Shown piece by piece: positions 4,962 to 63,890 of a stretch of DNA of 64,000 nucleotides. Under the pieces are notes generated by a model, which searched no databases, had not been told where the DNA came from, and saw nothing but the letters and a program-made list of their open reading frames with translations. Numbering within the stretch: the first letter of the stretch is position 1; every line of letters starts with the position of its first letter. Source of the stretch: Octopus vulgaris (taxonomy: Eukaryota); contig OX597817.1 in the NCBI GenBank assembly GCA_951406725.2, positions 93,620,001 to 93,684,000 of the forward strand. Reading direction: 5' to 3'. The translations under genes and the position numbers were made by a program.

Positions 4962-7900
4962 TCACGTGGCCCCTTTCACTCGCAGCAATCGTGCCACACG
5001 TTTCCATATTTTTTCGAACTCACACGCAGACAGACACCTTTTCTCTAACTCCACCTTTCTTTTCAGGTGGAACCTGAAATAGGTCACCAAGGCGGAGCCA
5101 GAGATCATGGTGCCTGTCATTACCGCTTTCATTCTAGTCTTCCATATGCACTCTTTCGCTACTGCTACTGTACTGAGAAAGCAATGCTTACCTTCACTTG
5201 TCAAAAAGCTAGGCGAGTCAATTTTTATAATTGTCTCAGCCGATAGCTGTACTCTTCTTCCGTCCGACAACAGGTGTTCGGCATATACCCACACGTCCGA
5301 AACTTCCGGACACTGAACAATAGCGTGCGAGACTGTTTCCAGATCCCGCTCGCATCTTGGACAGCTCGATGGTCCACTCCAACCATGCCTTGTGAGTTTA
5401 TCCCGAACGGGTAAAGCCCCTCTGAAACATTGCCAGGTCAAAGACTTCTGGAAGTTATCCAGTGTCTTCGGCCCGAACGTCCTTCGGAACAGGCTGTCTA
5501 ACTGATTTCGATCGAGGCCCAAGGTCCTTCCTAAGGCATCGTCATTTCCGGCCTCTACCAACCTGCTATAGAAAGCTGCGGTGGTACCAAAGCCGCCGGC
5601 ATTGCCCGAGTTGCGGAAGTGGCAGAGTGCCTTACGGCACTCCGAATACCACATGCTCGATCTAAGTCTACGACGAAACCAGGTTTCTCTGCCACCGAAA
5701 CTGACAAAGCTGGGGAACATCTGCCTCGCAAGCGGGGACCACACCCGTTCACCATCCAGGTAGAGCCAAAGATGCCTTAACCTCAGCGCATGTCTGCGCA
5801 TCATCAGCCAAGGCATCCCTAAGCCACCCTTTAACGGTTTCTGACAGCAAATAGAACGTCTTACAAGAGGAGTGCTTCCCTTCCACAAAAAGCGGAAGAT
5901 CTGCCTCTCCAACTTGCTTAACCACGAATCCGGACAAGGGACGACGGTCAGGCGGTAGGTGATGACCGATGCTAAAAACACATTGGCCACCTCCGCCCTC
6001 CCTTTCAAGGATAGCCACCGTCCGGACCAAGTCCCGACCGCGTGAGCCACCTTGCCCGTCACCTCAGACCAGTTCTTTTCTATCTGGAGATCTGGACCAA
6101 ACCAGATCCCTAGCAGCTTAACCGGGCCCTCCGTCCAGCATCCCACGATGCTATTCGAAGGCATCGACTTGCCCCTCCAGGTGCCGAGTTGCAAGCCGAC
6201 CGATTTTTCCGGGTTAATCTTTGCTCCTGTCGCCGTCTCGTAAGCCTTGATGGCATCTCCCACATTACGTAGGAGTTCCACCTCGGTCACGATGATGGTG
6301 ATGTCGTCCGCATACGATGTCACAGATCCTCCACCTCCTGGATTCATCGGGATGGCGCTCAGCTTTCGCAGCAATGGCTCGAGAGCCATCACATACAAAA
6401 TCGGGGAGAGCGGACACCCTTGACGAACAGACTGTCTGATGCGGAACGGCTTCGAAAGGAAGCCGTTCACCCGAACGATCGAGTCGATGTTATCGTACAA
6501 TTGTATGATCCACCTGAGGAAGCCAACACCCAGACCGAACTGCGCCAGCACGGACACCAGGTACCGATGGTGCACCCTATCGAACGCTTTACTCTGGTCT
6601 AAATGGACCAATGCCCCACCTTTGCCAGAGTCATTCCCAAACCTCTCTATTGTGTAGCGTACTAGGTGAAGATTGTCCTGGATGGTTCTTCCAGGGACCG
6701 CACAAGTTTGTGCCTCCCCGATCAGACCACCCGCGACACGCGTCAACCTTTTCGCTAGCACCTTGGCCAAAATCTTCACCTCTGTGTTTAGCAGTGTGAT
6801 GGGCCGAAAGTTGTCTATGTTGTCCCCCTTGCTCGGGTCCTTTCTGATCAGCGTCACCACTCCCCGACGTACAGATCTGGGAATGAACCCATTCTGTCGC
6901 CAGTTCGCGAAGACTCCGGTCAGCACGTTCCCGAACAAGTCTGGCATTCTCTTATATAGCTCGTAAGGTAAACCATCAATCCCCGGCGCCCTGCCTTCAC
7001 CGCAGTCGACCAGGACCTCAGCTATCTCCTCAGGCGAGATCGACGCTTCACAGCTCTCCGCGTCCTGCCCCGTGAGGCGCGGCAACCCGGCGAGGATGTC
7101 CGTTAGGTCCACCCTCTCCTCCGGCCCGCCGTCGCCCCCAAAGAGCCGAGCGAAGTGCTCCTGAAACGTCCGACACATCTCCTCTGGTTCGGTGATCACA
7201 TCGCCTCGCCCGTTCGTCACAGACTTAATTGTGGAATCGTTTCCACGTTGAGCCTCCACAACTCGTGCCCATCCGGCAGCCCTGATACCCTCGCACCCCA
7301 TTGCGCGAATTCTAGCTCTGACGATGTTGGGCTTCGAGGTGCTGGTTCAACTCCAGTCTCTTCAGCCTAACTTGGGCCCCATCGCCAGCTCTCATGGCTT
7401 CCTCTAAGGCCTTAACTAGCCCCATCTCTTTCCTACGCCCACTAGTTGCTAGACCTATGCTGTATCTAATGGACTCGTATTTGATGGCTCTTTTGAGGGC
7501 GTACCACCATTTGTTGTTAATAATGGAACCGGTTAACGCCCTCTTCACTAATAACTCGATCCGGTTTCTGTACTCCTCAATAGCCAGAAGGGACTTATTG
7601 AGTTTCCAGTAGCCGGATCCCTTACTACCTAACTTATCTAGGTTCAGTTCGCCAGTGACCATCTTGTGATCGCTGTAACTGACCAGGTGAAACTGTGGAC
7701 ACTTAACTAATCCTTTATCTATTTTTCTAATAAAAATTCTGTCTATGTAGGACCTGACAGACCCGTCGCCACTTAACCACGTCCACTGTGGAGCGTTCGG
7801 GAATTCAAGTCTGTAGGGATCCACCAGCTGAAAGCGACTCAGTAGATCCCGGAAGCCAGGGTTTGGTTTTCTATCTTTTGAGCCAACGCCATCGACGCGC

Positions 7901-8337
7901 GCGTCGACTATGGCATTAAAGTCCCCTAGCATGACTATGGATTTTGACGTGCCAAGAAACTTCTCTAGGTCTCGATAAAAATCAGTCTGACCCGAATTAG
8001 GTGCGTATACCGCCACCAGCCTGATTTCTTTACCACAACTGAACGTCAGATCTAAGACGACCAGCCTACCTTCTGAATCAGAAAAAATCAACTTTTTCTC
8101 TGAGACACTATCTTTTTTAAGCAGGACCAACACCCCACTGCCGCCCACATGCCGTCCAGGAGAAATAAATTTCTCGTAGCCGTTCATGAGCGGGAGTAGA
8201 TCTCTTGGCCCTTCGATTCGTGTCTCAGTAGCTACAATTACATTTAAATTCCGCGCCCTGATATCGTTTAGTAAACGACCTTGTTTCCAGTTCGCTACCA
8301 GGGTGCGCACATTTATACAACCAACGTAAACAGCCAT
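4962..8337 (-). CDS. LINE ORF2: APE endonuclease (7312-8337) + reverse transcriptase (4962-7301), one frameshift near 7310
   Basis: APE motifs INVRTL, ETRI, VYAPN, GDFN, IDRIF, SDH, GYWKLN. RT motifs APGIDGLP, NFRPITLLN, DQSKAFDRV, QGCPLSP, YADD, LLGIW. C-terminal CPRC-x7-H-x4-C. Confidence 0.92.
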
Positions 8338-8344
8338 AGTTTGC

Positions 8345-9668
8345 TTACCTTATTTCCTCCGGGTCCGGCCGACGGGGGGGACCCGTCTCTTCTGCCTCCG
8401 AGGGCCGTGGAATCGGCGTACTGCTGTTCTTCTTTTCTACATCCTTCAGGGCATCCCCCTTGCTCATTCTGGATGGGCCTACGTCTTTTCTAAAATCATT
8501 TGCTAACGTGTTGAACCCTCTCAGTCCCATCACGTAGCATCTCCAGTCTCCACCTCTCACTTCCATCTCCACCTCCTCGGTGTGTTGTGTCTCCACTCTA
8601 CGCATCACTTCCCTGTTTGCGGTGTTCATCGCGACGTACACCCTATTTTCCCTCTCCGGCTTCTTCGCCTTCTTCACTTCTCTCTTCTCTTTACTTATGG
8701 TTTTCTCCGGGGAGGGGTTATTGTGTTTTCGCTTTGTAGCCGCAACCTGTGACCACCCCTCCCCTACTTCTGTTGCAGGTGTTGTTTCTATTGCCGCCAC
8801 TTGCGAACTTGGCTTTGTGGGTTCGCTCTTCTCCTTCTCTGCCGGCTTGCAGTCTTTCTTGATGTGGCCCTTCTTGCCACAGGTGAAACACCTGGGCTTC
8901 CGGCCCTCCACCATTACTGCCATCCGGCTCTCTCCTATCTCAATCACCTCGCCTATCTCTTCCAAGACGTCCGGCTCGGCCTGAATGATAATTTTTACTT
9001 TCTGTCCTTGCCACTTTTTGGCGTCTTCCACCGTGGCATCGCGAATCTCTATTTTTTCTTCCAGCCCTGCAGTGACTCCAGCCACTATTAGTTCGGGCTC
9101 AACCTCTGGCGGAATATTAGCAATCGTAATTCTTGAAATGCGCCTTCCTCTATAAATAGGTAGAAGGGTTACTGCCTCTGTTTTCAGGGGTTCCATAGAC
9201 TGCTCCCTTGCTTCTTCCTCTGTTTTGAACCTGGTTTCTCTTACCCCTGGTTAAAAATGTAATTTTTTCCCAGATGGGTTTTAAGCACGCCTCCACTTCC
9301 TTCTCCGAAGAAAAGTCTATTCTTCTTTCCTTATTTCTATAAGTTTTATATATTATTGTTTTTCTTTCTATCTCTTCGAGAGATTCTTTCGTCTGGTTCA
9401 GCTTAATTTTATATCCGTTTCGGGATACTATCTTTTTAACTTCGTCCAACTTGGTTAGGTTTATCTTTCTTTCTTTTGGACTCACCGCTTCAGCGAAGTT
9501 CAGCGCCTTCTTTGCCATGCTTGGCACATCCATATTTCTTCTGACTCGCCTACTTTCCTCTTCGTCCGAGGAAATGTCGGGCAAGGCTACTGTTCCTTCT
9601 AGGCTGGACATCTCTGGACTCAGGACCTGGGTTTGGTCTTCCGTTCTGTCCGCCTTCGGGCTGGCCAT
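8345..9668 (-). CDS. LINE ORF1 (gag-like nucleic-acid-binding protein with zinc knuckle), one frameshift near 9200-9240
   Basis: ORFs 9150-9698 and 8345-9196 overlap in different frames. Knuckle CFTCGKKGHIKKDC, RRM-like RITIANIPPEV segment and a Lys/Glu-rich tail. First ATG at 9668. Confidence 0.8.
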
Positions 9669-10125
9669 TATTGGCCTACCCCTCCTCAGCGGCTTCACTA
9701 AAATTAGTCAAATAAATTCGACTAAAAAAGACAACTTACTTTTTCTTTTGGGTTTTTTTTTTTTCTTTCACAAATAACAACTGGTAGTAGAATGTAGAGT
9801 ACAAGTTTGCTATTCTTAAACAAAAATGAATATGTATATATTTCACATTCGTTATTACATACATATTTAAGCACTTAACGTTTTCTCATGCAAAACCATT
9901 CATACGCAAATACACATACACATGTATGTCAACACACACACAAAATTCGTGAAAAACAGGAAACTTGCTAGGCAAGACTCAAGTTTTGTCAATAACCCTT
10001 TGTCCTTCAGGGATTTTTTCTCTTCTTTGCTTTGGATGGTTTTGTGCGTTTATAGGTAATGTATGTATAGCATCTGTGTTTGTATGTGTACATATTTATT
10101 TGAAATCTGGCCGAACATTTGTACT

Positions 10126-14858: not shown

Positions 14859-15392
14859 CTGTGAATATGTAAATGTGACAAGACATCGTTGACAAAAAAA
14901 TGACAAGACATAGGACATCATTAGCATGTCAACTTGCCTTCCATATCTTTGTACTCTTAATCACTGTTGAATCACATGGCTGTCCACTAGAATGTCTGAT
15001 AGTTCCTGCAACTTGATACTGTTCTTTTATTGTTCCTTTTCTTCATCTTTCCAAGCATCTGCAAGCTTGAATCTAGCATTATAGCAAGAGTAGCAAAGAC
15101 TGTACTAATACAGACGTGTGATGTGTATGGAGGATAACAGTTGTATAATTAAGTGCTGGGCATTCAAAATGGATGGAATCCAAGACGAAGATCTATGGTG
15201 ACTTGGGACTAAGTGGTGAAAACTGACCTTAAAATACTGAACCTTACAAACATGGTGTAGGACAGCAATGAGTCGTGACAGTTTTGGAGAAGATCCGGAC
15301 ACCCATGCAAGCATTGGCAAAACAGACATTAAAATGATGGTAATAGAGGAATTATGTACATTAGACGGATATTTGTCCTCATCTTGTTTGTT

Positions 15393-15438
15393 AACACAAC
15401 GTTTCGGTTGATATACCTTCCAGCCTTCATCAGGTGTC
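15393..15438 (-). ncRNA. Minimal type I hammerhead ribozyme
   Basis: Stem I gacac/gtgtt, core CUGAUGA, stem II ggctg..caacc, GAAA, palindromic CG stem III, GUU triplet. Confidence 0.7.
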
Positions 15439-15585
15439 TTGGGGAAATTTCGAACTTGGGTTCTCATTCCTAAGGTATTTTTCGATGTTATTAGTAATAT
15501 TATTATTATTATAATTATTATTAATAATAATAACAACATCGAAAACTACCTTAGGAATGAGAACCCAGGTTCGAAATTTCCCCAA

Positions 15586-15631
15586 GACACCTGATGAAGG
15601 CTGGAGGGTATATCAGCCGAAATGTTGTGTT
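15586..15631 (+). ncRNA. Minimal type I hammerhead ribozyme
   Basis: gacac CTGATGA a ggctg gagggtatat cagcc GAAA tgtt gtgtt; C>T change in stem III. Confidence 0.65.
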
Positions 15632-16752
15632 AACAAACAAGATGAGGACAAATATCCGTCAAATGTAAATAATGTATCAACATTTAGTTCTCTCATTCAT
15701 TCTTGTTAGGTCTACTTCCTTTCCCTCATTACTCTCCTCTCCTATTTACTGTGCCATGCTGCATGTGTAACAAGGATGGCGTTGGCACTGCATGTATTCA
15801 ACATTATCATTGAACCTCTCTCCCATCATTATGGTTGTGTAATGGAGAGATGGCATCAGACATCTGTCCATATTCATACTCCTTCCACATTCTTTATCCA
15901 TCACACTTTCTCTCTCTCTCACACACATTACTCCCTCCCAGCTCACTCATTATTCTTATATATTACTCTTACTTCCAGGACTGCTATCACCGTCTCCTTC
16001 CTTCCACTTTCTTTTCCCTGAGTACCGTTCATACTGTTTTAATTAAGTCCCCTTACAAATAAAGATGTTGTTGCTATCACTGTTTCTTTTCTGTAACTCC
16101 TTCCTTTATTACTCACTTGTCACTATCACATTTGTTTTTCATACTACCATGGGTTGGGTAGGTCATCACAGTCCTGGTTTTGGCATATGGCCATTCAGTG
16201 TAGCAGGACTATGCAAGCTAAAATTATTTGGTCACTTTTGTCTTTGCTAAATCCTCATTATTCTCTCTCTGGACTTTTTCATTACTGTCACTGTCAGTTT
16301 GACGTTCTTCAACAACTTTTAAAAATCTTTCTAGAGTGAACTTAACTGTGATGTTGACTTGCTAGATGCCCTCCTGGGAGACCATAAAGAGTAAAGCAGC
16401 AGTTAGAAACATGGATTAATACCATAAAGTTAGATTTGATCCTTGTGTCTACTACTGGAATTGAGAATTAATGCATTGACAGGTGTCTGTGATCACCACG
16501 CATGGCTTGAAAATTTATGTTTATGATGCTGTGATTTACCAGTTGGGGCTGGATCAGCCTATCTTGGATGAAACTTACAAAGATATAAATATAGTAATGA
16601 GGATGAGTGATGAGAGAGTGACAGGGGATAATGTTTAGCAATAAAGAAGGGATGATGACCTAGGAATGGTTGGATACATAGAGATTCAATGAAATGCTGT
16701 CCCTCATAGCAAAGTTGTGATAGAAACGAAATGATAGTATATATGTACATTG

Positions 16753-17122
16753 ATTTCATCCTGCTCTTTTCATATTTTTAAGCGTTTTGTTTGGATAGCT
16801 TGATCTGTTCTCCCTTCGTTCCCCTATTCTCTAAACATGGCGACTTCATGCATTGCATTTTTAAAGTTTATTTTCCTTCAGGGCCATCTTCGATGTTTAT
16901 CCATTCTCCTCCGAAATATGCCCCCTCGTCTCTTACCGTATCTTTTTCATTATTTATCTATTCTCATTCTCTACCGTATTTTTTTCATTATTTATCTATT
17001 TCCATTCTCTACCGTATTTTTTATTATTTATCTATTTTCATTCTCTCTCTGGCTTTCATTCAGTCATTTATCTAATTAATTATTTTTCCCCCTCAAATAT
17101 AGTATTCAAACTAGTTGCTTCG

Positions 17123-17163
<41 letters not shown>

Positions 17164-17653
17164 TTTCCGTCCCCTTCCCTAATTCCCTTATAAAAGCCAG
17201 CGTGCGATCGTATCTGATCCCTATTCACTCGCTACACCTTCAAAGAAAACACAGACTTCCAAAAATGGCCAGCTAAGTCAATTTCATCCTGCTCTTTTCA
17301 TATTTTTAAGCGTTTTGTTTGGATAGCTTGATCTGTTCTCCCTTCGTTCCCCTATTCTCTAAACATGGCGACTTCATGCATTGCATTTTTAAAGTTTATT
17401 TTCCTTCAGGGCCATCTTCGATGTTTATCCATTCTCCTCCGAAATATGCCCCCTCGTCTCTTACCGTATCTTTTTCATTATTTATCTATTCTCATTCTCT
17501 ACCGTATTTTTTTCATTATTTATCTATTTCCATTCTCTACCGTATTTTTTATTATTTATCTATTTTCATTCTCTCTCTGGCTTTCATTCAGTCATTTATC
17601 TAATTAATTATTTTTCCCCCTCAAATATAGTATTCAAACTAGTTGCTTCGATT
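16753..17653 (+). repeat. Near-identical 373-bp direct repeats (period 528) upstream of the RTE ORF, separated by (TC)n and a TATA module
   Basis: 16753-17125 matches 17281-17653; the ORF track gives identical peptides 528 bp apart. Confidence 0.9.
17189..17230 (+). promoter_or_regulatory. Candidate Pol II core promoter (TATAAAA + Inr-like TCACTC)
   Basis: TATAAAAG at 17189, ttcactc at 17224-17230, (TC)n GAGA-type tract upstream. Confidence 0.4.
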
Positions 17654-17803
17654 TTGTCGCCCGCCCTCCCACCACCAATACCGGAAGTTTCTACCCTAAT
17701 ACCGGAAACTACCCCCTCCCCCACTAGCACCTATGTAGGGTTTATCTGAACATATAGCGCAAAAATTGTGAAAAGTATGCAGGTTGTAGTCTAGAGTTTC
17801 CAT

Positions 17804-20800
17804 ATGAAATCTGCCAAATGCAAGCTTTCTTTTCAGGTACATGACACTGCTGTCCCTCGTCCCAGGGTCTCTGATGCCCACACCTCCCAAACCCTCAGAG
17901 TTGGCACGCTCAACGTTGGCACATTGAAAGGTAGGTCTGGAGAGATTGTAGAGCTGCTTGAACGGAGACGTGTGGATGTATGCTGTATCCAGGAAGTAAG
18001 GTGGAGAGGAGGTTCTGCTAGGCTCCTCACGGGCAAGGAACACAGGTACAAGATTTTCTGGGCAGGGAACATTGACGGTGTCGGGGGCGTGGGTATACTT
18101 CTTGCGGAGAAATGGATAGGTAAGGTAATCGAGGTAGTCAGAATAAGTGACAGAGTAATTAAAATTAGATTAGTTCTTCACCATAGGACAGCTACCATCA
18201 TCTCGGCATATGCCCCTCAACCAGGGCTACCGGAAGGACAAAAAGACCAATTCTATGACACCCTATTGCGGACTACCTCATTGACAAATGACAGTGACCT
18301 TCTCTTCGTGGCAGGTGATTTCAATGGACATGTTGGACGACATGTCAGGGGCTTCCATGGCATCCATGGAGGCCACGGTTTTGGCTCTCGAAATGAGGAG
18401 GGAACCAGGCTGCTGGAGTTCTGCGATGCAAATGACCTTATGGTCTGCAATACCCACTTCAGGAAACCCACCTCTCACCTAGTCACCTACCGTTCTGGCA
18501 GACACACCAGCCAGATTGACTACATCCTTGCCAGAAAAAGGGAAAGAGGGCTGATTATAAATGCCAAAACCTTCCCAGGCGAAGAATGTACTCCCCAACA
18601 TAGATTAGTAGTTAGCGACTTCAGGATCAGAGCTAAATGGTCGCCCAGAAGAAGACCAGCTTGGAGGAGAAGGGTCTGGAAGCTTAAAGATCCTGCAAAT
18701 GCACAGAGATTTAGAGACATACTACTCGAAGCCTCTGACGAAATAGAAGGGGATATAGCTTCACTTAATGTGGAAGACAACTGGAGATTCCTACGGGACA
18801 ATCTGCTGACAGCCACTGACCAGATCTGTGGATGGAGCAAAGTACCATCTCGACCCAGAGTAACATGGTGGTGGAACACGGTGGTTGACGGGGCTATTAG
18901 ACAAAAGAGACAGGCTTGGAAGGACTGGAAGAACGGTGGTAGCAGGGAATTGTATCAGACAGCCAAAAGGGAAGCTAGGAGACAGGTTTATATAGCCAGA
19001 GGGGAAGCGGATAAGAAAAAATTTGCCAATGTTCTGAGCCGTGAGGATGAAAGACTTGAGGTATTTCGTGTTGCAAGACAGTGTGTGAGAGAGAATCGTG
19101 ATGTGGTAGGAGAGAAGTGTGTTCGCATGGATGATGGTTCACTTGCGCTAAATGAGGATGCAAAGAGAGAGGTTTGGAGATGCCACTATGAAAGTTTGCT
19201 GAATAAAGAAAATGAATGGGATAAAGAGAGTCTGCCAAATGTTGACCCAACAGAGGGGCCAGCTATCCGAGTTGATAGTTCCGTGGTAGCTAAGGCAATT
19301 AGAAGCATGAAGACAGGGAAAGCCCCAGGCCCATCAGGAATTACTGCAGAGATGCTCAAAATATCTGGCAGTGTCGGCTATAACCTAGTCACCCGTATAG
19401 TCAACCAGGTGATACACGAAGGAGTCATACCCAATGACTGGTGTAGCAGCATACTAGTCAACTGCTACAAAGGTAAAGGTGATGCCCTGGATACAAATAA
19501 TTACAGAGGTATCAAGCTGTTGGATCAGGTAATGAAGGTTACGGAGAGGGTCTTAGCCCAACTAATTAGAGAGAGAGTTAGTTTAGATGAGATGCAGTTT
19601 GGGTTTGTCCCAGGGAAAAGCACCACTGATGCTATATTCCTGGTAAGGCAGCTGCAGGAGAAATACCTAGCCAAGGATAAGCCCCTGTACCTGGCTTTTG
19701 TTGACATGGAGAAAGCCTTTGATAGGGTCCCCCGATCCCTCATCTGGTGGTCAATGAGGAAACTAGGGATAGATGAATGGCTGGTGAGGGCTGTGCAAGC
19801 CATGTACAGAGATGCCGTAAGTAAGGTTAGAGTTGGCAACATGTACACAGAAGAATTCAAAGTAGAGGTTGGGGTCCACCAGGGTTCAGTACTCAGCCCC
19901 CTCCTATTTATCATAGTCCTCCAGGCAATAACGGAGGAATTCAAGACAGGTTGCCCCTGGGAGCTCCTCTATGCTGACGACCTCGCTCTAATCGCTGAGT
20001 CACTATCAGAACTGGAGGAGAAGTTCCAGGTGTGGAAGGAGGGTTTAGAATCGAGGGGCCTTAGAGTCAACCTAGCTAAAACCAAAGTACTAATAAGTAG
20101 AAAGGTAGAAAACCCACAAATATCATCAGGAAGATGGCCCTGCTCGATCTGTAGAAAAGGTGTAGGTAGAAACTCTATAAGATGTACCCAGTGTAAGCTA
20201 TGGACACATAAGAGGTGCAGCAATGTCAAAGGTAGGCTAACTGGGAAGATAGTTTTTGTATGTGGCAGGTGCTCTGGAGCACTGACCTCCGAAAATCTGC
20301 AGAAAACAACTTCTGTCACTTTCCGGGGGAAAAACTAGAAGTAGTTGATAGTTTCCGCTATCTAGGTGACCAAGTCAGTAGTGGGGGTGGGTGCGCTGAA
20401 AGTGTAACTGCTAGAATAAGAATAGCCTGGGCAAAGTTTAGGAGCTCTTACCTCTGCTGGTGACTAAAGGCCTCTCGCTCAGAGTAAAAGGCAGACTGTA
20501 TGATGCATGTGTACGAACAGCTATGCTACATGGCAGTGAAACATGGGCCGTGACTGCTGAGGACATGCGTAAGCTCGTGAGGAACGAAGCCAGTATGCTC
20601 CGATGGATGTGTAATGTCAGTGTACTTACTCGACAGAGCGTTAGTACCTTGAGAGAAATGTTGTACCTAAGAAGCATCAGTTGTTGTGTGCAAGAGAGAC
20701 GATTGCGCTGGTATGGTCATGTGGCGAGAATGGATGAAGAGAGGTGTGTGAGAAAGTGCCAATCCCTAGCAGTTGAGGGAACCCGTGGAAGAGGTAGACC

Positions 20801-20921
20801 CAGGAAAACCTGGGACGAGGTGGTGAAGCACGACCTTCGGACGTTAGGTCTCACCATGGAAATGACTAGAGACCGAGACCTATGGAAGTATGCTGTGCGT
20901 GAGAAGACCCGGCAAGACTAG
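17804..20921 (+). CDS. RTE APE-RT polyprotein with internal PHD finger; two frameshifts near 20325 and 20445
   Basis: TLNVGTL, QEVRW, SAYAPQ, GDFNGHVG, QIDY, NYRGIKLL, DMEKAFDRV, HQGSVLSP, YADD. Continues in ORFs 20260-20463 (FRYLG) and 20460-20921. Confidence 0.92.
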
Positions 20922-21104
20922 TGAAGCCATAATCCGTGGCCCCTACCTGGGACGTAGTCAGTCCACCTGTGCATACCTTCCTTCTTGTGACACTTGTGAA
21001 GACCTGTTGAGGCAAGTGAGAATCGAATCGTATCAAATCAAATCGAACCAAATCAAAATAGATGAACATCAATGGAATTTGTATCCTTGTGGTACCAGTG
21101 CCGG

Positions 21105-21560
21105 TGGCACATAAGAAAACCATCCGAACGTGACCGTAGCCAGTACCGCAATGACTGGCCTCCGTGCTGAGGGCACGTAACAAACACCATCCGAGCATGG
21201 CCGTCCGCCAGCCTCGTCTAGCACCTGTGTCGGTGACACATAAGAAAACACCATCCGAGCGTGGCCGTCTGCCAGCCTCGTCTGGCACCTGTGTCGGTGG
21301 CACATAAAAAACACCATCCGAGCGTGGCCGTCTGCCAGCCTCGTCTGGCACCTGTGTCGGTGGCACATAAAAAACACCATCCGAGCGTGGCCGTCTGCCA
21401 GCCTCGTCTGGCACCTGTGTCGGTGGCACATAAAAAACACCATCCGAGCGTGGCCGTCTGCCAGCCTCGTCTGGCACCTGTGTCGGTGGCACATAAAAAA
21501 CACCATCCGAGCGTGGCCGTCTGCCAGCCTCGTCTGGCACCTGTGTCGGTGGCACATAAA
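21105..21560 (+). repeat. 63-bp GC-rich tandem array in the RTE 3'UTR
   Basis: Unit cacataaaaaacaccatccgagcgtggccgtctgccagcctcgtctggcacctgtgtcggtgg starts at ~21238, 21301, 21364, 21427 and 21490, with diverged units at ~21109 and 21175. Confidence 0.95.
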
Positions 21561-21855
21561 ATCACCCACTACACTCTCGGAGTGGTTGGCGTTAGGAAGG
21601 GCATCCAGCTGTAGAAACACTGCCACATCTGACTGGCCTGGTGCAGCCTTCGGGCTTCCCAGACCCCAGTTGAACCGTCCAACCCATGCTAGCATGGAAA
21701 GCGGACGTTAAACGATGATGATGATGATGATGATGATTGATAAGGGGAGAAGGTGAGTAAGACTGGGTGAATAATGAAGAGAAAATAGTAGCTGGAGAAT
21801 TAATATGAACATAATGGTGAGGAGAGACCCAAATATAGACATGCATTTTGATTTT

Positions 21856-37175: not shown

Positions 37176-37243
37176 GCATGTGTGTGTGTGTTAATTTCAT
37201 GTCAATAATTACTATACAAAACTACATCATACAGTACTACATT

Positions 37244-37380
37244 TTAGAGATGAGGTATTCTGTACATTATTTACATTGGCCGGATATGTGTCCTTCGTCT
37301 GATTTACTCTGATGTTGTTGTTGTTGTTCTTCTTGTTCTTGTTCTTGTTCTTGTTCTTGTTGTTCTTCTTCTTCTTCTTC

Positions 37381-37434
<54 letters not shown>

Positions 37435-37610
37435 CAGGCACTGCCTTGAATAAATAATAATAATAACATCAGCAAAACACACCTTAGGAATAAGAACCCA
37501 GGGTTGGGTTCAAAATTCTGCCAGAACACCTGATGAAGGCTGGAGAGTAAATCAAACGAAACTTTGTGGTAACAACAAACAAGATGAGGACACATATCCG
37601 TCCAATTTAA
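37244..37610. mobile_element. Palindromic hammerhead element family A, copy 2 (older, left arm partly deleted)
   Basis: Left arm keeps only the tail. Centre is (TTG)(TTC)(TTA)n plus ttccaggcactg. Right arm has CTGATGA at 37530. Confidence 0.7.
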
Positions 37611-37743
37611 AGAAAGTAAATGAATCTATATTATTACACTAAATATGAAATCAATTGGAAAAAAATCTAAGAAATTGAAAAGTGGCAGCAAAACAGAAAA
37701 GATTCTATCTATATATATATATATCATCTATCTATACATATGC

Positions 37744-41829: not shown

Positions 41830-42210
41830 CTATCCATATGGTATATTTATATTCGACATTTTAAATTTAGCCGCGTGCCTACATAAGTTCATTAACTCAC
41901 TTCTTTGATTCAAAGAATTATTGTCTTTGAATAAGATGTGCATTTTCTCTAATAAGCAAAGCCTGCACTTGAAATTATATTTGTAAGCTCCATGCCTGTA
42001 TGGTGCCGCCCTGTCCAGAATGCTCCATGTCACGTTGAAAGGTGGGGCTTCCTTTTCTTTTAGTTCCCAGACATATTTTGCTAGGCTGGTTTTCTTCCTA
42101 TTCTCTGGGTATTTAAAAGAATTCTTATGAGAATAAAATCTTGTTTTAAATGAATTTTCTGAAGCCCCTGTGTATGTCTTGTATTCCGATGAGCCTTCCA
42201 CTTGCACCTT
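41830..42210 (-). CDS. GIY-YIG endonuclease C-terminal part of a PLE (Naiad-like signature, tentative)
   Basis: [53 protein letters not shown]. The ORF's apparent N-terminus is microsatellite. Confidence 0.8.
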
Positions 42211-42782: not shown

Positions 42783-43640
42783 TATTATTATTATTATTAT
42801 TATTCAGTAGTTTTATTTTTATAGCGTGATTTCACTTCACTACCGAGCGCAGCTCTGTGTGCCTTGGGTATGTGCTGTGATTTGTTGTGATGCTCTGATG
42901 GTTATTGTATGGAAAGTGTTCTGCGTAGGATGTGTGCAGTGCCTAGTAGTGCAATTTTCTGTATGTTATATGTGTTTGTAAGTCCTGGTGTTTTTGTTAT
43001 GTATTTGTCTGAATATTTTTTTATCATGCCTAATGCACCTACTATGATAGGAATTGTTTCTGTTTTCAGGTTCCACATTCTAGTTATCTCTATTTCCAGG
43101 TCTTTGTATTTTGAGAGTTTCTCCATTTCTTTTAGAGACACGTTGTCATCTGCCGGTATTGATACATCAATTAAAAAGCATTTTTTTCTTCATGATCTCT
43201 GACAACTATATCTGGTCTGTTGGCCTTAATTTCTCTATCTGTGTGTATCGGCATATCCCAGAGTATGGTTGCTTTCTCGTTTTCTGTGACCTTTTCTGGT
43301 ATGTGCCTATACCATCTTTTTTCTGTTGTTATTCCATAATGTTGGCATAGCTTCCAATGTATGTAGGTTCCAACTCTGTCATGTCTGTGAATATATTCCT
43401 TCTTAGCCAGGACTGGGCAGCTAGAGATAATATGATTTATTGTTTCTTGTCCATCTCCACATATTCTGCAGTTACTTGTAATATTTCTTTTCATTACATG
43501 TTTTTGGTAATTTCTGGTGGGGAGGCTTTGGTCTTGTGCTGCAATTAAAAATCCCTCTGTTTCTGCTTTGAGTCCTGAGCTTCTCAACCATTGCTGGGAT
43601 TTTTCTTTGTCTATTTCTTTTGAGTTTAGTTTAGTGCAGT
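42783..43640 (-). mobile_element. 5'-truncated R4/Dong-clade retrotransposon (CCHC + restriction-like endonuclease) in (TAA)n
   Basis: ETEGFLIAAQDQ, CRIC..ETINHIISSC, RHD, NRPDIV, EKLSKYKDL, PIIVGALG (ORFs 43171-43587 and 42902-43141, frameshift in a T run). The 3' end runs into (TAA)n. Confidence 0.88.
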
Positions 43641-43708: not shown

Positions 43709-44230
43709 GAGTGAGAGAGCAGTGCATGTCATCAAAGTGACACTGTGGTAAAATATACGAAGCCCAGTATACCCATCATGTCTACCCGTCCGATAAGGGT
43801 ACACCAGGCACATGCATCACAACCATATGTGCGCGACATGGTGTCATATCAAGATAAACAGCGCATGACCTTGCAGGTGGGGCCCAGTTAGAATTTTCTT
43901 CTGGACGCGTAGCCCATCCCGCTCAAAAGGTCCCTGAATAAGGGTTGTTTAAGGATGTTGAACGAACCACCCATGTTTCCAAAGGTGAATTATCCAAACC
44001 TCTAAGAATTCCTTTCAACACACGGCTATGATGCTCCCCCACAACTTCTGCTTGTGATCATAGATGCGCATATGGTCAACCACAAAAGGACATGGTGAAC
44101 TGGTTAAGGTCAAACAACTGGCAAGGAAATCTGTAGTACTGTTCAGAATATTTGCTGTAGTCCATCTTTTATACCAAGACAAAATGATGTACATGATAAC
44201 ACTTCCGATCAGTTAAGATCAGAATCCACG
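43709..44230 (-). mobile_element. ~570-bp non-coding interspersed element embedded in (ATT)n, copy 1
   Basis: High similarity to 50552-51118; both are bounded by ATT/TTA repeats. Strand inferred from the AAT tail. Confidence 0.8.
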
Positions 44231-44231
44231 A

Positions 44232-50101: not shown

Positions 50102-50173
50102 ACGCATGTATGTGTATATGTGTGTGTACATACGAATATGTATGTACACATAAGTAGGTCTATACAGTTTTAT

Positions 50174-50345
50174 ATTTAAGAGATGAGGAATTATGTACAT
50201 TATTTACATTATTTACATTTGACGGATATTTGTCCTTATCTTGTTTGTTGTTAAAAACGTTTCAGCTGATATACCCTCCAGCCTTCATCAGATGTATTGG
50301 GGAAATTTCAAACCTGGGATCTCATTTCTAAGGTATTTTTCGATG

Positions 50346-50398
<53 letters not shown>

Positions 50399-50437
50399 GT
50401 TGTTGTTGTTATTGTTGTTACTATTCTTCTTCTTCTT

Positions 50438-50529
<92 letters not shown>

Positions 50530-51116
50530 CATCATTATTATTATTATTATTGAGTGAGAGATCAGTTCATGCCATCAAAGTGGCACTGGGGTAAAATATA
50601 CGAAACCCAATATACCCATCATGACTACCCGTCTGATAAAGGTCTACCCGTCTGATAGATGCACATGCATCACAACCATATGTGCGCGACATGGTGATCT
50701 CATATCAAGATAAACAGCACATGACCTTGCAGGTGGGGCCCAGTTAGAATTTTCTTCAGGTTGAGTAGCCCATCCCGCTCAAACGGTCCCTGAATAAGGG
50801 TTGTTTAAGGATGTTGAAAGAACCACCCATGTTTCCAGAGGTGAACTATTCAAACCCCAAAGAATCCCTCTCAACACATGGCTATGATGCTCCTCCACTA
50901 CTTCTGCTCGTGATCAGAGATGCACATATCGTCAGCCACTAAGGGACATGCTCAACTGGTTAAGGTCAAACAACTGACAAGCAAATCTGTGGTATTGAGC
51001 AGAATATTTGCTGTAGCCCATCTTTTATACCAAGACAAAACAATGTACATGATAACACTTCCAATCAGTTAAGATCAGAAGCCATGAGAGCCACTGCCTG
51101 GTACTGCATCAGGGCA

Positions 51117-51161
<45 letters not shown>

Positions 51162-51234
51162 CATTATTATTATTATTATTATTATTGTTGTTGTTGTTGT
51201 TGTTATTATCATTATTATTATTATTGACCTGAAA

Positions 51235-51303
<69 letters not shown>

Positions 51304-51449
51304 ACAACAACAATAGTAATAATAATAATTATAACATCGAAAAATACCTTAGGAATAAGAACCCATGTTCGAAATTTCCCCCAAACGAGGGTACATCAGC
51401 CGAAGACAAACAAGATGAGTACAAATACCCGCCAAATGTAAATAATGTA
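50174..51449. mobile_element. Palindromic hammerhead element family A, copy 3, with a nested insertion
   Basis: Left arm 50174-50347 (reverse CTGATGA at 50285-91), right arm 51333-51449 (core deleted). The centre is an expanded trinucleotide tract holding the 570-bp element. Confidence 0.75.
50552..51118 (-). mobile_element. ~570-bp non-coding element embedded in (ATT)n, copy 2 (longer)
   Basis: Homologous to 43709-44230; pure (ATT)n on both flanks. Confidence 0.8.
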
Positions 51450-52199
51450 AGTAGATCAATGCTTGCTAGACTTTACAATTTTTTCATTCAATATCCAGAC
51501 AGTTCTGATCAATTACCAATTGATAATCAATACAAACCAACTGTATGACCGTTGTCAACCTAAACAAGTTACAGAGTTACACTAGATTTACAGATTTCTT
51601 GTTGACAGGAAGTTCAATTCCCACAACGACCTAAATATTTATGTTAATAATCGTACCTTATTGGTTTTATTCCGTTCTGATGTAATGTGTATTGCACAAA
51701 TAAAAGACACAAACACACACACATTTATATATATACATATATATATATATACATATATATATACATACATACATACATATATACATGCGCATAGTTCTAC
51801 TCATACGTTTTCATATACTTTAAATTAACGATGCGATATTTAGATCTTGAATTGATGTCTATCTACTGTTTATTATGTTCATAAACACATACCCACACAC
51901 ATACACATGACACATACATTCTTACACACATGCATAGATACATGCTTACATATATACATTCATATGTTATAGGGTCTCATACATGTAATATAGTCATCTG
52001 AAAAATTTTGTCCAAGTGAAATTTACCAATTTACCAACAGAGGGACATAATCCCAGTGCGATCAATTCATATTCATATTTGTTTAGCGAATAGGACAGAT
52101 CTGGTCTTTAAAGCCAAATGATGGAAGCAATGGATATGTTTCAGTCATATCAGACCTTGTCACTGAAGCATAATCTACTCTGTTAGGAAGACAGAAAGG

Positions 52200-56217: not shown

Positions 56218-56520
56218 CACCGTGACCGTGACCGACCAGACCATCAGATGTTGCTACACATCGCTGGTCACAATGCATTTGCATTGTTTTAGCCTTCGAA
56301 CGACGCCACCCCGCTGGCTAACCGAGCAGGCCAACAGAAGAAAGAGTGAGAGAAAGAGTGGTGAAAGAGTACAGCAGGGATCACCACCTCCTGCCGGAGC
56401 CTCGTGGAGCTTTTAGGTGTTTTCGCTCAATAAACACACACAACGCCCGGTCTGGGAATCGAAACCGCGATCCTCCGACCGCGAGTCCGCTGCCCTAACC
56501 ACTGGGCCATTGCGCCTCCA
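56218..56520 (-). mobile_element. Full-length tRNA-derived SINE S2
   Basis: tggaggcgcaatggcccagtggttagggcagcggactcgcgg...ggtttcgattccc head; 3' (ggtcac) repeats; TA flanks. Confidence 0.88.
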
Positions 56521-57820: not shown

Positions 57821-57969
57821 CCCACTCTCCTATTTTGTTATACAACAACTCTACACATTTCCGTAATTTTAAACATTAATATGTGACTAACACGCAAGAG
57901 CAATATTGGATGGTAATAATGAAATAAGCAGATGTGCATCAAGAGGAAACAGTCAAGATTTGCAGTTCC

Positions 57970-58269
57970 ATATTTAAGAGATGAGGAATTATGTACATTA
58001 TTTACATTTGACGGATATTTGCCCTCATCTTCTTTGTTGTTAACACAACATTTCGGCTGATATACCCTCCAGCCTTCATCAGGTGTCTTGGGGAAATTTC
58101 TAACCTGGGTTCTCATTCCCAAGGTATTTTTCGATCTTCTTCTTCTTCTTCTTCTTCTTCTTCTTCTTCTTCTTCTTCTTCTTCTTCTTCTTCTTCTTCT
58201 TCTTCAGGTCACTGCCTGGAATCGAACTCGGAATATTGGAGTTCGATTCCAGGCAGTGAACTAAATAAC

Positions 58270-58306
<37 letters not shown>

Positions 58307-58456
58307 TCGAAAAATACCTTAGGAATTAGAACACAGATTCAAAATTTCACCGAGATACCTGATGAAGGCTGGAGGGTATATCAGCTGGAACGTTGTGTTA
58401 ACAACAAACAAGATGAGGATAAATATCCGTCAAATGTAAATAATGTAAATAATGTA
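57970..58456. mobile_element. Palindromic hammerhead element family A, copy 4 (most complete)
   Basis: Arms 57970-58135 and 58303-58456 with hammerheads at 58042-58087 (-) and ~58354-58399 (+, GAAA>GGAA). Linkers (TTC)n and (AAT)n. Central 21-bp perfect hairpin at 58209-58259. Confidence 0.85.
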
Positions 58457-59307
58457 GTTAAGATTTATCCTAACTACCTATATTACATGCACACACACAC
58501 ACACGCACACACACATACACACACGCATACACACACACACACACATGCATATATCTTTCTCCCCCACCCCATAAATCAAACGGTAGTAATTCGGACAATC
58601 TCATTTAGTCCGATACTTTTGCAATCGTTTTCACACAGTGAATACTCTAATTGCTAGAAACTGCAGTCAAACTCCTTTAAATCATATTCTATCATAAGGT
58701 CACAATGGAAAATGTATTCCTAGATACACTATTTGAACAAAAGTAGAGATATTGACGCCTTCGATCAGATCAGAAGTGTGCTCGATCAGCGCTGACTTAG
58801 GGTTCAACTGCAAAATGTCAATAACGACAGCACCACGCCTGTCACTAAGTTTTAAATGGGTGGATGTGTGGGGTGAACCAGTGATGCGATTCAATTGCAA
58901 AGGCTGTAGCCAGGAATAGAAACCAGATCGCTGAACTCGACTCTTGAAAGACATCTGTTTAGCAGACGGCACGTCGCTCTCTACAGGCAAAGCGATTTTA
59001 GATTTAAAACACCACCACCGCCGCCACCATCAGCGACTGCAAAAACGCTAATTTATATATATATATATAAAAAAAAATATATAATAAGGTTTTAATTCTG
59101 TATTTTCCTGCCCCGAACTAAACAACGAAAGGTTAAACCAAGGAATTATAAACTGGAGAATTATAAAGATTTAATCTATTCTCATTTAATCTCTTTTAAT
59201 CACAGGTAACAACAATTCTCCCCACCTCTCTCTTTCTCTCTCTAATTACATTTCGTTTGAAAATTTTAGATGAAGATTAATCAATAGAAGAGATTATAAT
59301 ATTTCAT

Positions 59308-59990: not shown

Positions 59991-62231
59991 ATCTAGTTTT
60001 TTTTTATTCGCAAAATATGCATTTTTTAAAAGACAGTAAAATATCTGAAAATCGGCTATAATAGTATAGTTTTCTAGTCTAATTGCTATGAAGGTATGAT
60101 TTTGTGGAGAAAAAAAAAATTGGAGGAAAAAGTTACAGAGGTTTAAAAATCGGAAAAACTCTGTATTTTTTAGCCAATAGCGAGACAGAAGTTTTCTGCG
60201 TTTAGTCAACTTTAAGGTTGTACCCTGTGAAATTTATAGTTTAGCGTCTGTGAAATGACCTCTTCATTGTAGGTTTCTAAATAAACAGAAATACCTAATA
60301 AATTCAACATGTATCATCTTACTGTTTCTTTTGTCTCTTCATAGGTTGTATGTTTCTATTATTTTTTTAAAATTTGTTATATTAATATATTTGTCTGCAT
60401 ATGTTTACTTTATGCGTATTTCAGTATTATGTATACCTGTCATGTATTTGTGTACATCATTAATATATAAGTGCTTACGCGCGCGCGTGTGTGTGAAAAG
60501 GGAGCGTCTGTCTCCAAAACTTCAAACATGAGTAACGTTTTCATACTTGGATTTTTAAACTACGATAAGAATAACACTGCTCAACAAAGAATTTGTCCAA
60601 AGAAAAGGAATACCTATATCTTACATGTTTTTACATGCAGAATTCAAAAATAATGTCAAATTATCTGTATTAAGTTCACATAATCCATTCACCTTCGTAA
60701 TGCCAAGAAACTATAAACATCGCAAACAACTTTTGCTATATATGAAAAATATGTAAAATATTAAGACAATTGATGAAAAATATCTACAATAAAATTCTAA
60801 TTGATAAATATAAATTTTTATCAAAACAAAACACGCGGGTGAAGTAAATCTCGTGGTGTGAAGAATCAACACAACAATCAGGTGAAGCAAAACACAACGT
60901 GCGGTTGTCATGGTAACATGCTGTTAATGCCCCGCTGTCTGTTGATTGGCTAAAATTACCCTACTTTCCGAACTTTAATTCCAAATAACATCAGATTCTT
61001 TAATTTACGAGATAAAGTAATTGTAATCAAAATTCAGAGTTGCATCGATACACAAAAATTGAAAGCAATCAGAACAAAATTAAAGGGGTCTCATTTTGCG
61101 AATGAAAAAGACTAGATCTGATAAAAGACATGTACCAGTAATTTAACAGGATTGAGCCAATCAGCTATCTCATATTTCTACCGCTTCACTTTCGCCGGGT
61201 GTGCTGTAGTCACACTAGGTTTCGCCTAGTGGTGTGTTATTGCCATGTTAAGACACCACCATATCCACCAAGTGTATTGTTGTTATGTTACAACACTATA
61301 TTCCTACCAATTGTAGCCATGCTAGGACACTGTGTTTCTCCTGTGTAGCTTATAATCTGTCAGGCTAGGGATCTCATCACAAACTGATGAGACCTGCTAC
61401 AGGTATCACGTAAGCAAATACTACGTGTTCCATGGTTGAGTGATCGACGACTAAACTGGCTCTTCCACTTGTGGAGCTTGCCACTCTTGGGAGGAGGGGG
61501 GGTCTGGATATATAGAAGGACTAAAAACAAGACCTGTCAAAGCGCGGATGTGCTCTTTGTGGCCCAATGGCTATCCAGTTGAGGAAGGCAATGGTAAGCC
61601 ACCCCAATACCTCTACCAAGAAAACACTATATGAAAGTAAGAATGAAGTAATGCTAAGGCTTCATCCGATCGGGAAGACTTTTGTAGTAGTATCATCTAC
61701 AACGGCGCCAAGTTTATGACCATGCTAATATACTGTAATTTCCATCAGGTGTGCTGTACTCTTGCTAGAGTATCCAGATTTTTTATTGATAGTGTTTTTG
61801 AAATTAGTCAAAAAAGAAAAGAAGAAAAAAAAAAGACAAAAGTGCAATACCATTTCTTTTGCAGGTCATCCCATTATAATGATATTATGTGGTTGTCTTT
61901 CATTTAGAATTTCAGTACGGGAACTCTGAGCAAAGAACTTTCAGAGAATGGTTACTATTCTGTGGAATAATTCTTGTTTAGTGCAATATCAGGTTGGGGG
62001 TTGAAGTGACACACAGTATAAATGACATGATGAGACGAGCATAACAGCTGTGTCAAGGTGGAAGGGATATATAACTAATGAGTTTAGAGAGGCCGAGGCC
62101 GTTATCGTAGCGGTAGAAGAGTTTGTACTTGAATGAGCCAGTAATTGCTATTGTTATTTCGCTATAAGTCAACCCTGACCCATACCTGATATATGAGTAA
62201 TGGGCCAGTCGTTATTTTTCCTGCGTAGCCT

Positions 62232-63152
62232 TAGTCCAGCTTGCAAGCGTAATTCTAGACGGAAGACAAGGCTCACAAAATGGAATCGCAGAATAATGAA
62301 ACGTATTGTGTCTAAAAGCTATCGAATTACGACAGCAAAAGAGACAGCTGAGCTAAAACACCATTTTATCAATCATGTGTCAACCAAAACCGTTTGTCGT
62401 TAGCTCCATAAATTTGGATATCATGCATGATAGGGATACAATTACTAAATTTTTGTTGTCCTCCATCAGCATTTGATAAGCAGAAAATATAATATTTAGA
62501 TTATCAGATGTGGTTCAATGGATAAATGGAACAATATCGCTTTTTCTGATGAATCATCATTCACCCTTTTACTGTTTAAATCGAGAGACAGTCCAAAGAA
62601 GCTGTCAGTTCTAAAAGTTTGGCTCCTATAATGAAGCATGGAGGTGACACTGTGATGATTTGGGTAGCCCTATCACGGAATTTTCTGAGTAATTTGGTTG
62701 GTGTATATGATAGAATTAACGCCTAGAATTATTTGAGTATTTTTGCTGACTGTGTTCATCCTATTGTACAAACATTGTTCCCCAATGGTATTGCAATCTT
62801 CTAGAACGATAATGTGCTAATTCGCACAGATAATATTCAAAATGGCTACGAAGTAGGCAACTTGGATTGGCCCCTATAATCACCGGATCTCAATATAATC
62901 GAACATTTATGGTGCATTTCGGAGCATCAAGTAAGGAACTGCTTCTCTCGACCACTGTCACTGAAAGAGCTAAAGTAGGATTTACTTGAAAATGGGCCAA
63001 AATTCCCCTGACAACCGTTCAGAACCTGTACAAACCTCAATTACTTAGTGTGTCAAAGCTGTGATTGATGCTAAATGTAGACCAACACTGTTTTAAACCA
63101 TAAAACTTCCATTAAAAAAGGTGTTTCCATTACTTTACCCACCCTTTGTGTA
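62232..63152 (+). mobile_element. Degraded Tc1-like transposon (transposase + right end)
   Basis: HTH region RRIMKRIVSK..TTAKETAEL..VSTKTV, then FSDESSF, KHGGDTVMIW and WPL*SPDLNIIEHLW. Candidate right end ggtgtttccattactttacccaccc near 63120-63150. Confidence 0.85.
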
Positions 63153-63502
63153 TACATATATGGTAATTGCTGCATCATTACAGATGATTGCTGTCTCCTT
63201 GTGTTTCCTATTGACAATAGTATTTCTAATTTTCCATCCATGATCTCTCAGTCCCGTTGCAGATTTGCAAGATTTGAAGCATTGGTCATGTATGACAGTT
63301 GTAAGTTACTGTGCGCGTCTAACTGGTTAGCTCTGCACACATCCCCACTCTTCTATTGCTATAGGGCTTAAGTAGATGGTGGGGTATGACAAATGAGGTT
63401 ATCATAAAGAGAGTTCTATACTCATTCAATTATAGTGATAAATGCTTGGAGAATATAAGTACCACTCTCTGAGTCTTCATGATTTGGGCTGTAATTTGAA
63501 CT

Positions 63503-63890
63503 GTAATTGCTATTGTTATTTAGCAATAAGTCAACCCTGACACACACCTGATATATGAGTAATGGGCCAGTCGTTATTTTTCTTGTGTAGCTTTAGCCAA
63601 GCTTGCAAGCGTAATTCTAAACCTAAGACAAGGCTCACAGAAAGAGATCGCAGAACATTGAAACGTATAGTGTCTAAAAACTGTCGAACTACGACAGCAA
63701 AAGAGACAGCTGAGCTAAAACATCATCTTACCAACCATGTGTCAACCAAAGCCGTTTGTCGTCAGCTCCATAAATTTGGATACCATGATAGGGATACAAT
63801 TGCTAAATTTTTGTTGTCCTCCATCAGCATTTGACAAGCAGAAAGAATAGTATCTTGATTATCAGACGTGGTCAATGGCTAATGGAACCT
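63503..63890 (+). repeat. ~390-bp local duplicate of 62141-62530
   Basis: Same start gtaattgctattgttatt; paralogous ORFs 62200-62403 and 63562-63834. Confidence 0.85.

Follow-up and report, generated by a model that had tools for sequence, protein, structure and literature searches.

The region analysed, hereafter the window, is a 64,000-nucleotide (64-kb) stretch of Octopus vulgaris DNA, and all coordinates refer to its first base. Comparison of one repeat arm with the window by BLAST recovered eight arms arranged as four head-to-head pairs, which bears out the four inverted pairs of the original prediction. In the sense of the element, each arm runs from a truncated head through a trinucleotide tract into a body of approximately 145 nt with a hammerhead motif, and one arm of a pair continues into a 3′ tail. 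The four insertions are as follows.

15346–15676, copy 1: inverted arms that meet inside the microsatellite; hammerhead cores at 15433 (−) and 15591 (+); shortened tail; search for a duplication negative
37230–37617 (start approximate), copy 2: older pair, approximately 80 % identity; left arm reduced to the 3′ end with tail; remnants of both heads at 37432–37449
50151–51457 including duplications (pair itself 50161–51449), copy 3: tail; head remnant at 51225–51233; foreign insert from 50552 to about 51118; target-site duplications at 50151–50160 and 51448–51457, 9/10 identical
57962–58456 (start approximate), copy 4: inverted pair with tail, truncated heads and hammerhead motifs

Copy 4 is composed of the following parts.

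57951–57961, no strand: left target-site duplication, 10/11 identical to 58456–58466
57962–57993, −: 3′ tail of 32 nt, on one arm only, common to copies 2 and 3; loose contig ends continue into it
57994–58136, −: left arm body, pseudo-LTR (pLTR)-like, from arm alignments
58042–58087, −: minimal type I hammerhead of the left arm, a descriptor match whose minimum free energy fold shows stems I and II
58137–58202, −: left-arm trinucleotide tract, (GAA)n in element sense, read from the sequence
58203–58238, −: 5′-truncated tRNA-like head of the left arm, with variable loop, T-loop/B-box-like motif and 3′ part; extended in the protein model P0001 (below)
58209–58259, no strand: perfect 21-bp palindrome (stem 58209–58229/58239–58259) made of the two truncated heads
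58239–58265, +: 5′-truncated head of the right arm, from sequence comparison
58266–58304, +: right-arm (TAA)n tract, read from the sequence
58305–58456, +: right arm body without tail, from alignments and contig ends
58354–58399, +: hammerhead of the right arm, core broken by a change in GAAA at 58388; the family-majority core is intact
58456–58466, no strand: right target-site duplication, paired with 57951–57961

The long arms are 78–96 % identical to each other in the window alignment; identity between the arms of one pair ranges from 76 to 92 %, and cross-pair identity reaches 96 %. Gene conversion between arms was rejected, since same-pair identity does not exceed cross-pair identity. Both arms of copy 1 nevertheless have a 3-nt deletion in common, and both arms of copy 2 have diagnostic bases in common, traits that would fit one template lineage per insertion event followed by independent decay. 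Each of the eight arms stops at or before the head, a limit that suggests a short template, and their ends fall within approximately 80 nt. In copies 1, 3 and 4, the right arms had been thought to stop at the same base; all three do finish on a common 9-nt motif, but copy 4 carries an additional unit, and contigs from three DNA runs terminate in either register, some at 58447 and others at 58456. An unrelated repeat of approximately 570 bp, lodged in the microsatellite of copy 3, splits that copy in two. This repeat (about 540–570 bp, 50552–51118, ending in (TAA)n) has a second copy at 43709–44231, which adjoins a LINE 3′ fragment.

The marks left at the insertion sites are those of Penelope-like elements (PLEs). 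According to the accessible text of the sources concerned, PLE insertions comprise an inverted, 5′-truncated copy and a 30–40-bp tail (PMC8557442), and inverted pLTRs have been described with a 31-bp tail and 8–10-bp duplications, their head-to-head junctions being palindromic (PMC3846280). In the window, inverted head-to-head 5′-truncated copies are found in four of four insertions, as in PLE insertions. A tail of 32–33 nt is present on one arm in three of the four (copies 2, 3 and 4; full but diverged in copy 2) and is cut short in copy 1. The extra left-arm tail noted originally is thus real, but it is longer than had been stated, starting at about 57962 in copy 4, and it occurs in copy 2 as well. 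In three DNA runs, contigs either terminate where the tail-less arm does or extend into the tail. Two of the four insertions (copies 3 and 4) have a target-site duplication of 10–11 bp around the whole pair, scores that were equalled at 4/3000 and 2/3000 random positions, respectively; with the tailed and tail-less ends of all four insertions compared, no duplication was found in copy 1, and the best in copy 2 was 7/9. In all four insertions the tail is borne by the left arm, an outcome with a chance of 1 in 8 that may reflect a strand bias.

Each pair therefore looks like a single PLE insertion, given that inversion, tail, duplication and minimal hammerhead are all published PLE features, and PLE-type mobilization of the octopus repeat is well supported by these sequence marks. 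The proposal of a non-coding, high-copy, PLE-mobilized family is upheld by the same four traits. A LINE as the reverse-transcription partner was rejected, the insertion marks being of PLE type and a simple-repeat 3′ tail being absent from the arms. As far as the available text of PMC11167929 goes, the anole PLE protein cuts and extends both strands in vitro, initiates reverse transcription at two sites bounding the tail and works without hammerhead cleavage; head-to-head junctions may also arise by self-priming on an antisense template, a route proposed elsewhere (PMC3846280, in excerpt).

The 21-bp stem at the centre of copy 4 is far more stable than expected (fold z −11; none of 200 shuffles as stable). 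The 9-nt loop of the hairpin consists of further head sequence of the left arm; thus, the hairpin marks where two heads of unequal truncation meet. The original description of a perfect 21-bp central hairpin containing a B-box/T-arm-like motif was accurate, but the hairpin is an inversion junction rather than a structure of its own.

The hammerhead motif was examined in the arms and in the family as a whole. The left-arm motif of copy 4 has a stem I of 5 bp, the core, an extra A, a stem II of 6 bp and GAAA, with no stem III; its C15.2 has decayed to U, and the predicted cut site lies after 58047. A CUGANGA core is present in six of the eight window arms, and a descriptor that also checks the stems is passed by two of eight (two matches in the window vs 0.02 per shuffle over 50 shuffles); no window arm matches the family-majority hammerhead in full. 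In the three DNA runs, A at 58388 accounts for 99.6 % of aligned depth in each, C at 58386 for 71–76 % and C at 58356 for 89–99 %, and these depths indicate a family majority with an intact core, stems I and II and a palindromic ACGU. The variants listed within the motif comprise CpG decay, a loop position and the free position N7 (5–11 %); those reaching at least 5 % are CpG decay and N7. The minimal type I hammerhead originally described for each arm, where intact, is thus seen with a complete core in the family majority; in the window, six of eight arms keep the CUGANGA core and only two pass the stem-checked descriptor.

Published minimal hammerheads are characterized, in the accessible text of PMC4209133, by an extra base before stem II, G10.1–C11.1, palindromic 15.2–16.2, a long stem II and a 5-bp stem I. 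The octopus hammerhead shares all of these traits. Its family majority carries the CUGANGA/GAAA/UH core, stems I and II, an extra base after A9, G10.1–C11.1 and palindromic 15.2–16.2, and its position 17 is U, as in the Hydra-1_Obim hammerhead, whose stems differ from those of the octopus repeat. The stem covariation that had been set as a check was not found, as none of 11 stem pairs shows a two-sided change over the eight arms, a comparison with little power in a young single-master family. Hammerhead folding was no better than that of shuffles (z −0.8 to +1.1). Rfam gave no hammerhead match in the whole window or in three small stretches, its matches being restricted to hairpin, microsatellite and other sub-threshold hits, and the exact motif had no match in metagenome, GTDB and viral contigs. 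When two hammerheads were co-folded, the stem-III dimer was not the lowest-energy fold, a result that is uninformative for a 4-bp helix. PLE minimal hammerheads have been reported as pairs 100–700 bp apart on opposite strands, with no cleavage as monomers and low cleavage as dimers (PMC4209133, accessible text). In the octopus pairs, a cis dimer of the two hammerheads is impossible because they occupy opposite strands. The predicted arm-to-arm duplex of a read-through transcript comprises 151 pairs in copy 1 and 171 pairs in copy 4, and since the sense hammerhead would be buried in this duplex, the inverted pairs are unlikely to self-cleave. The PLE end may carry the hammerhead along as a passenger that cleaves only in dimeric form or when assisted by protein.

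Evidence for a tRNA-derived head comes from the window and from a gene model. The heads of copy 4 contain the only two occurrences of the T-loop/B-box 10-mer in the window, and the head remnants suggested earlier for copies 2 and 3 were located at 37432–37449 and 51225–51233. A phmmer search with a spurious antisense frame returned two matches. The weaker, P0002 (E 5e-4, 21 % identity), was dismissed as unrelated repeat sequence. The better, P0001 (E 2.5e-9, 70 % identity), is a Nup42 gene model of Octopus bimaculoides, the last 50 residues of which (145–194) read body, tract and head; this segment is an antisense copy of the element, either exonized or an annotation artefact. The head–tract–body join is seen in three window insertions (copies 2, 3 and 4) as well as in P0001, and the remnants together with the P0001 copy show it to be a family trait. 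The head keeps one orientation and position in P0001 and in the window arms that retain it (both in copy 2, both in copy 4, the right one in copy 3), and no free head was found elsewhere in the 64-kb window.

P0001 continues for eight codons (24 nt and the presumed stop) beyond the last residue common to the window arm; this extension of the head is one protein read back through degenerate codons, with the end of the model assumed to be the stop. Anchored on the T-loop, the codons fix A21, pyrimidines at 20/20a, A38, C39 and A44, allow C32–U33, and force a 29–41 mismatch in the anticodon stem and C at 26; overall, P0001 is compatible with tRNA positions 20–53. The presumed stop places Y-Y-A at 20/20a/21, with the A 32 nt before the T-loop. 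The same 32-nt spacing is found in both of the other tRNA-like heads in the window, and a first stop at that P0001 codon would arise by chance in approximately 3 % of cases. The two heads that served as spacing controls, at 56465 (−) and 38993 (−), belong to other tRNA-like SINEs and contain motifs resembling the A and B boxes.

In the octopus head itself, three of the five T-arm stem positions pair. No A box was seen in the window DNA, where the heads are cut off before the A-box position, and neither Rfam nor ARAGORN (0 genes) found a tRNA in the window; a control head with A and B boxes was also missed. The sense strand lacks a T4 run, which is compatible with Pol III transcription but common by chance. 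The predicted tRNA-like head is therefore partly sustained, by its B-box/T-loop motif, by three window insertions and a gene model, and by its tRNA register, but no A box was observed and no tRNA model matched; a tRNA head is likely, albeit incompletely seen.

The abundance of the family was estimated from contigs of four of 24 listed runs aligned to the element. Three were DNA runs, one each from organisms A, B and C, in which 15,695–18,927 contigs matched per run. Summed depth divided by the median depth of eight listed long pieces corresponds to 0.8–2 × 10⁵ arms, an order of magnitude only and not a copy number, and the estimate of approximately 10⁵ agrees with eight arms in 64 kb. These alignments exclude the head and tract (skipped as repeat) and say nothing on the head. 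The fourth run, guessed to be RNA, yielded 38 contigs, which say nothing on expression, strand or editing. The element is thus short, dispersed, high copy and non-coding, as tRNA-derived SINEs are. One run, X10, contains go-back joints in window coordinates 58357–58427 with depths of 557 and 966 (approximately 31 single-copy depths). These joints imply a head-to-tail repeat of a unit of approximately 75 nt with the whole hammerhead, possibly a retrozyme-like tandem offshoot able to form cis dimers.

No ORF with reverse transcriptase (RT) and GIY-YIG domains lies in or beside the arms in the window, nor was an autonomous partner sharing their 3′ end found within it. A sense frame (57964–58116 (−) and its equivalents) is open through the hammerhead and tail in five of the six long arms; 3.7 % of 20,000 shuffles of one arm did as well, a null in which the copies are not independent. 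An atlas search with this frame gave weak matches only, and the partner's ORF may begin with it; pLTRs often overlap the start of the PLE ORF (PMC3846280, accessible text). A GIY-YIG-like endonuclease fragment at 41830–42200 (−), 5′-truncated and inserted in (TA)n, has an atlas score of 0.95 and no Pfam match, and resembles Hydra-clade PLE C-termini by eye. It has nothing recognizable in common with the arm, its 3′ flank does not match the arm, and no hammerhead core was found downstream. Word-index protein searches with two spurious frames and with this fragment returned no matches.

Taken at the level of sequence, the repeat is best explained as a high-copy, non-coding retroposon, likely a tRNA-headed, Pol III-transcribed SINE copied by a PLE, to which we assign a probability of approximately 0.6. 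These odds are coloured by presumed longer octopus copies with an A-box-like start, which are not used as evidence. A master of approximately 300 nt with a full tRNA-derived head would be transcribed by Pol III, and its 3′ 170 nt, derived from a PLE pLTR, would be bound by the PLE RT/GIY-YIG protein. This protein would nick both target strands approximately 10 bp apart, and each nick would prime reverse transcription, the far start site giving the tailed arm and the near site the tail-less arm, by analogy with the anole PLE in vitro. Joining of the two cDNAs at their truncated head ends would then leave a palindrome within one duplication. The window copies, whose heads have lost their 5′ portion, would no longer serve as templates.

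Alternatively, the arms may be the ordinary 5′-truncated pLTR ends of a longer, perhaps autonomous PLE transcribed by Pol II, with the tRNA piece an old SINE fragment in its UTR. Each insertion mark is generic for PLEs, including opposite-strand hammerhead pairs at the published spacing of 100–700 bp (PMC4209133, in the text available), no A box was seen, and the frame open in five of six long arms (3.7 % by shuffle) is expected if the body overlaps the start of a PLE ORF. However, such a frame is also expected if a SINE borrowed the pLTR, none of the eight arms runs past the head, with all ends within approximately 80 nt of each other, and the head keeps its tRNA register in P0001; on balance, this origin is considered rather unlikely. 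Head and body could also be two independent elements that meet repeatedly at the (TAA)n tracts favoured by both, one a simple tRNA SINE ending in (TAA)n and the other a PLE end. The copy-3 insert demonstrates that other repeats do enter the tract, but the constant position and orientation of the head in P0001 and in copies 2, 3 and 4 (only the right arm in copy 3), the lack of a free head elsewhere in the window and the single duplication spanning a whole pair make repeated encounters improbable.

The original prediction also called the elements retrozyme-like, and a non-LTR retrozyme, in which hammerhead-processed circular RNA is inserted as tandem units, would share with them a type I minimal hammerhead and a link to PLEs (bioRxiv 10.64898/2026.07.22.740005, accessible part); the go-back joints of one run, implying a head-to-tail repeat of the 75-nt hammerhead unit, point the same way. 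The label does not fit the window, where the copies are dispersed inverted pairs (four of four insertions) and none is a head-to-tail tandem; moreover, the tandem joints amount to approximately 31 single-copy depths against approximately 10⁵, and the unit ends are not at the predicted cut site. This is the least probable of the explanations considered, with very little weight. To return to a tRNA-headed SINE copied by a PLE, we see an even chance that this large octopus repeat family is a true Pol III SINE with a PLE partner, its tRNA head fused to a pLTR, and that it has supplied tens of thousands of 150–250-bp inverted repeats, each recording two-ended PLE priming and each a potential dsRNA substrate of ADAR.

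The octopus repeat works like a PLE-mobilized non-autonomous element. As far as the accessible text of the sources extends, PLEs with inverted pLTRs (PMC4209133, PMC8557442, PMC3846280, PMC11167929) resemble it in having a minimal type I hammerhead, arms inverted head to head about a junction palindrome, a 30–40-bp tail at one end and a short duplication enclosing the whole unit. It differs from endonuclease-positive PLEs in that no arm has RT or GIY-YIG and in having a unit of approximately 300 nt with a tRNA-like head and approximately 10⁵ arms. The octopus hammerhead motif was not found in the Naiad/Hydra supplement, in which line breaks and cut runs could hide a match. The closest known elements, on the portions of the literature available, are schistosome Sm-alpha/Sj-alpha and PLE-derived retrozymes. 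Sm-alpha/Sj-alpha already combine a tRNA-related SINE with a hammerhead, and are likewise reportedly Pol III-transcribed and high copy, with a type I hammerhead. However, they are described as tandem or satellite-like units freed by a ribozyme active in vitro, and their descriptions, in excerpt, give no PLE tail, inverted-pair insertion or PLE partner, whereas the octopus repeat is inserted in the form of inverted pairs bearing PLE marks. Animal non-LTR retrozymes (bioRxiv 10.64898/2026.07.22.740005, main text) are also non-coding, hammerhead-bearing and proposed to be PLE derivatives, but they are defined by head-to-tail tandem units, and tRNA is unmentioned in that main text. The tRNA-derived SINEs, as presented in the accessible text on SINEBase (PMC3531059), are similarly short, non-autonomous and present at very high copy, with a head–body–tail organization and a 3′ part borrowed from the partner; the definition given there names LINE partners, whereas the octopus repeat has a PLE-type 3′ end, an internal microsatellite and palindromic pairs.

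The architecture apart from the head has hence already been described for PLEs, and a hammerhead-bearing tRNA-related SINE is known from schistosomes. No description of the family, or of a tRNA-headed PLE-dependent SINE, was found in the available text of the literature searched, including octopus repeat papers, PMC3531059, PMC10886601, PMC6962438 and bioRxiv 10.1101/596502; an earlier annotation, for example in Repbase or Dfam, is possible. If the repeat is tRNA-headed with a PLE end, the trans mobilization of Pol III RNAs would be among the activities of PLE enzymes and would reach very high copy numbers. With thousands of short insertions in which tail, duplication and junction are intact, the two-start, both-strand model of PLE integration could be tested statistically. 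Each insertion is also a built-in inverted repeat, in animals known for heavy A-to-I editing.

Other repeats are present in the window. The LINE 3′ end at 42805–43640 (−), which contains zf-RVT (Pfam) and which we take to be R4/Dong-like, ends in (TAA)n and has the same five bases before its tract as the head. Two long LINE-like elements with endonuclease and RT frames, presumably L1/Tx1-like and RTE-like, respectively, are located at 4962–9707 (−) and 17795–20921 (+). Finally, 16753–17652, 21090–21561 and 62141–63888 comprise an exact 372-bp duplication, a 63-bp tandem array and a diverged 392-bp duplication.
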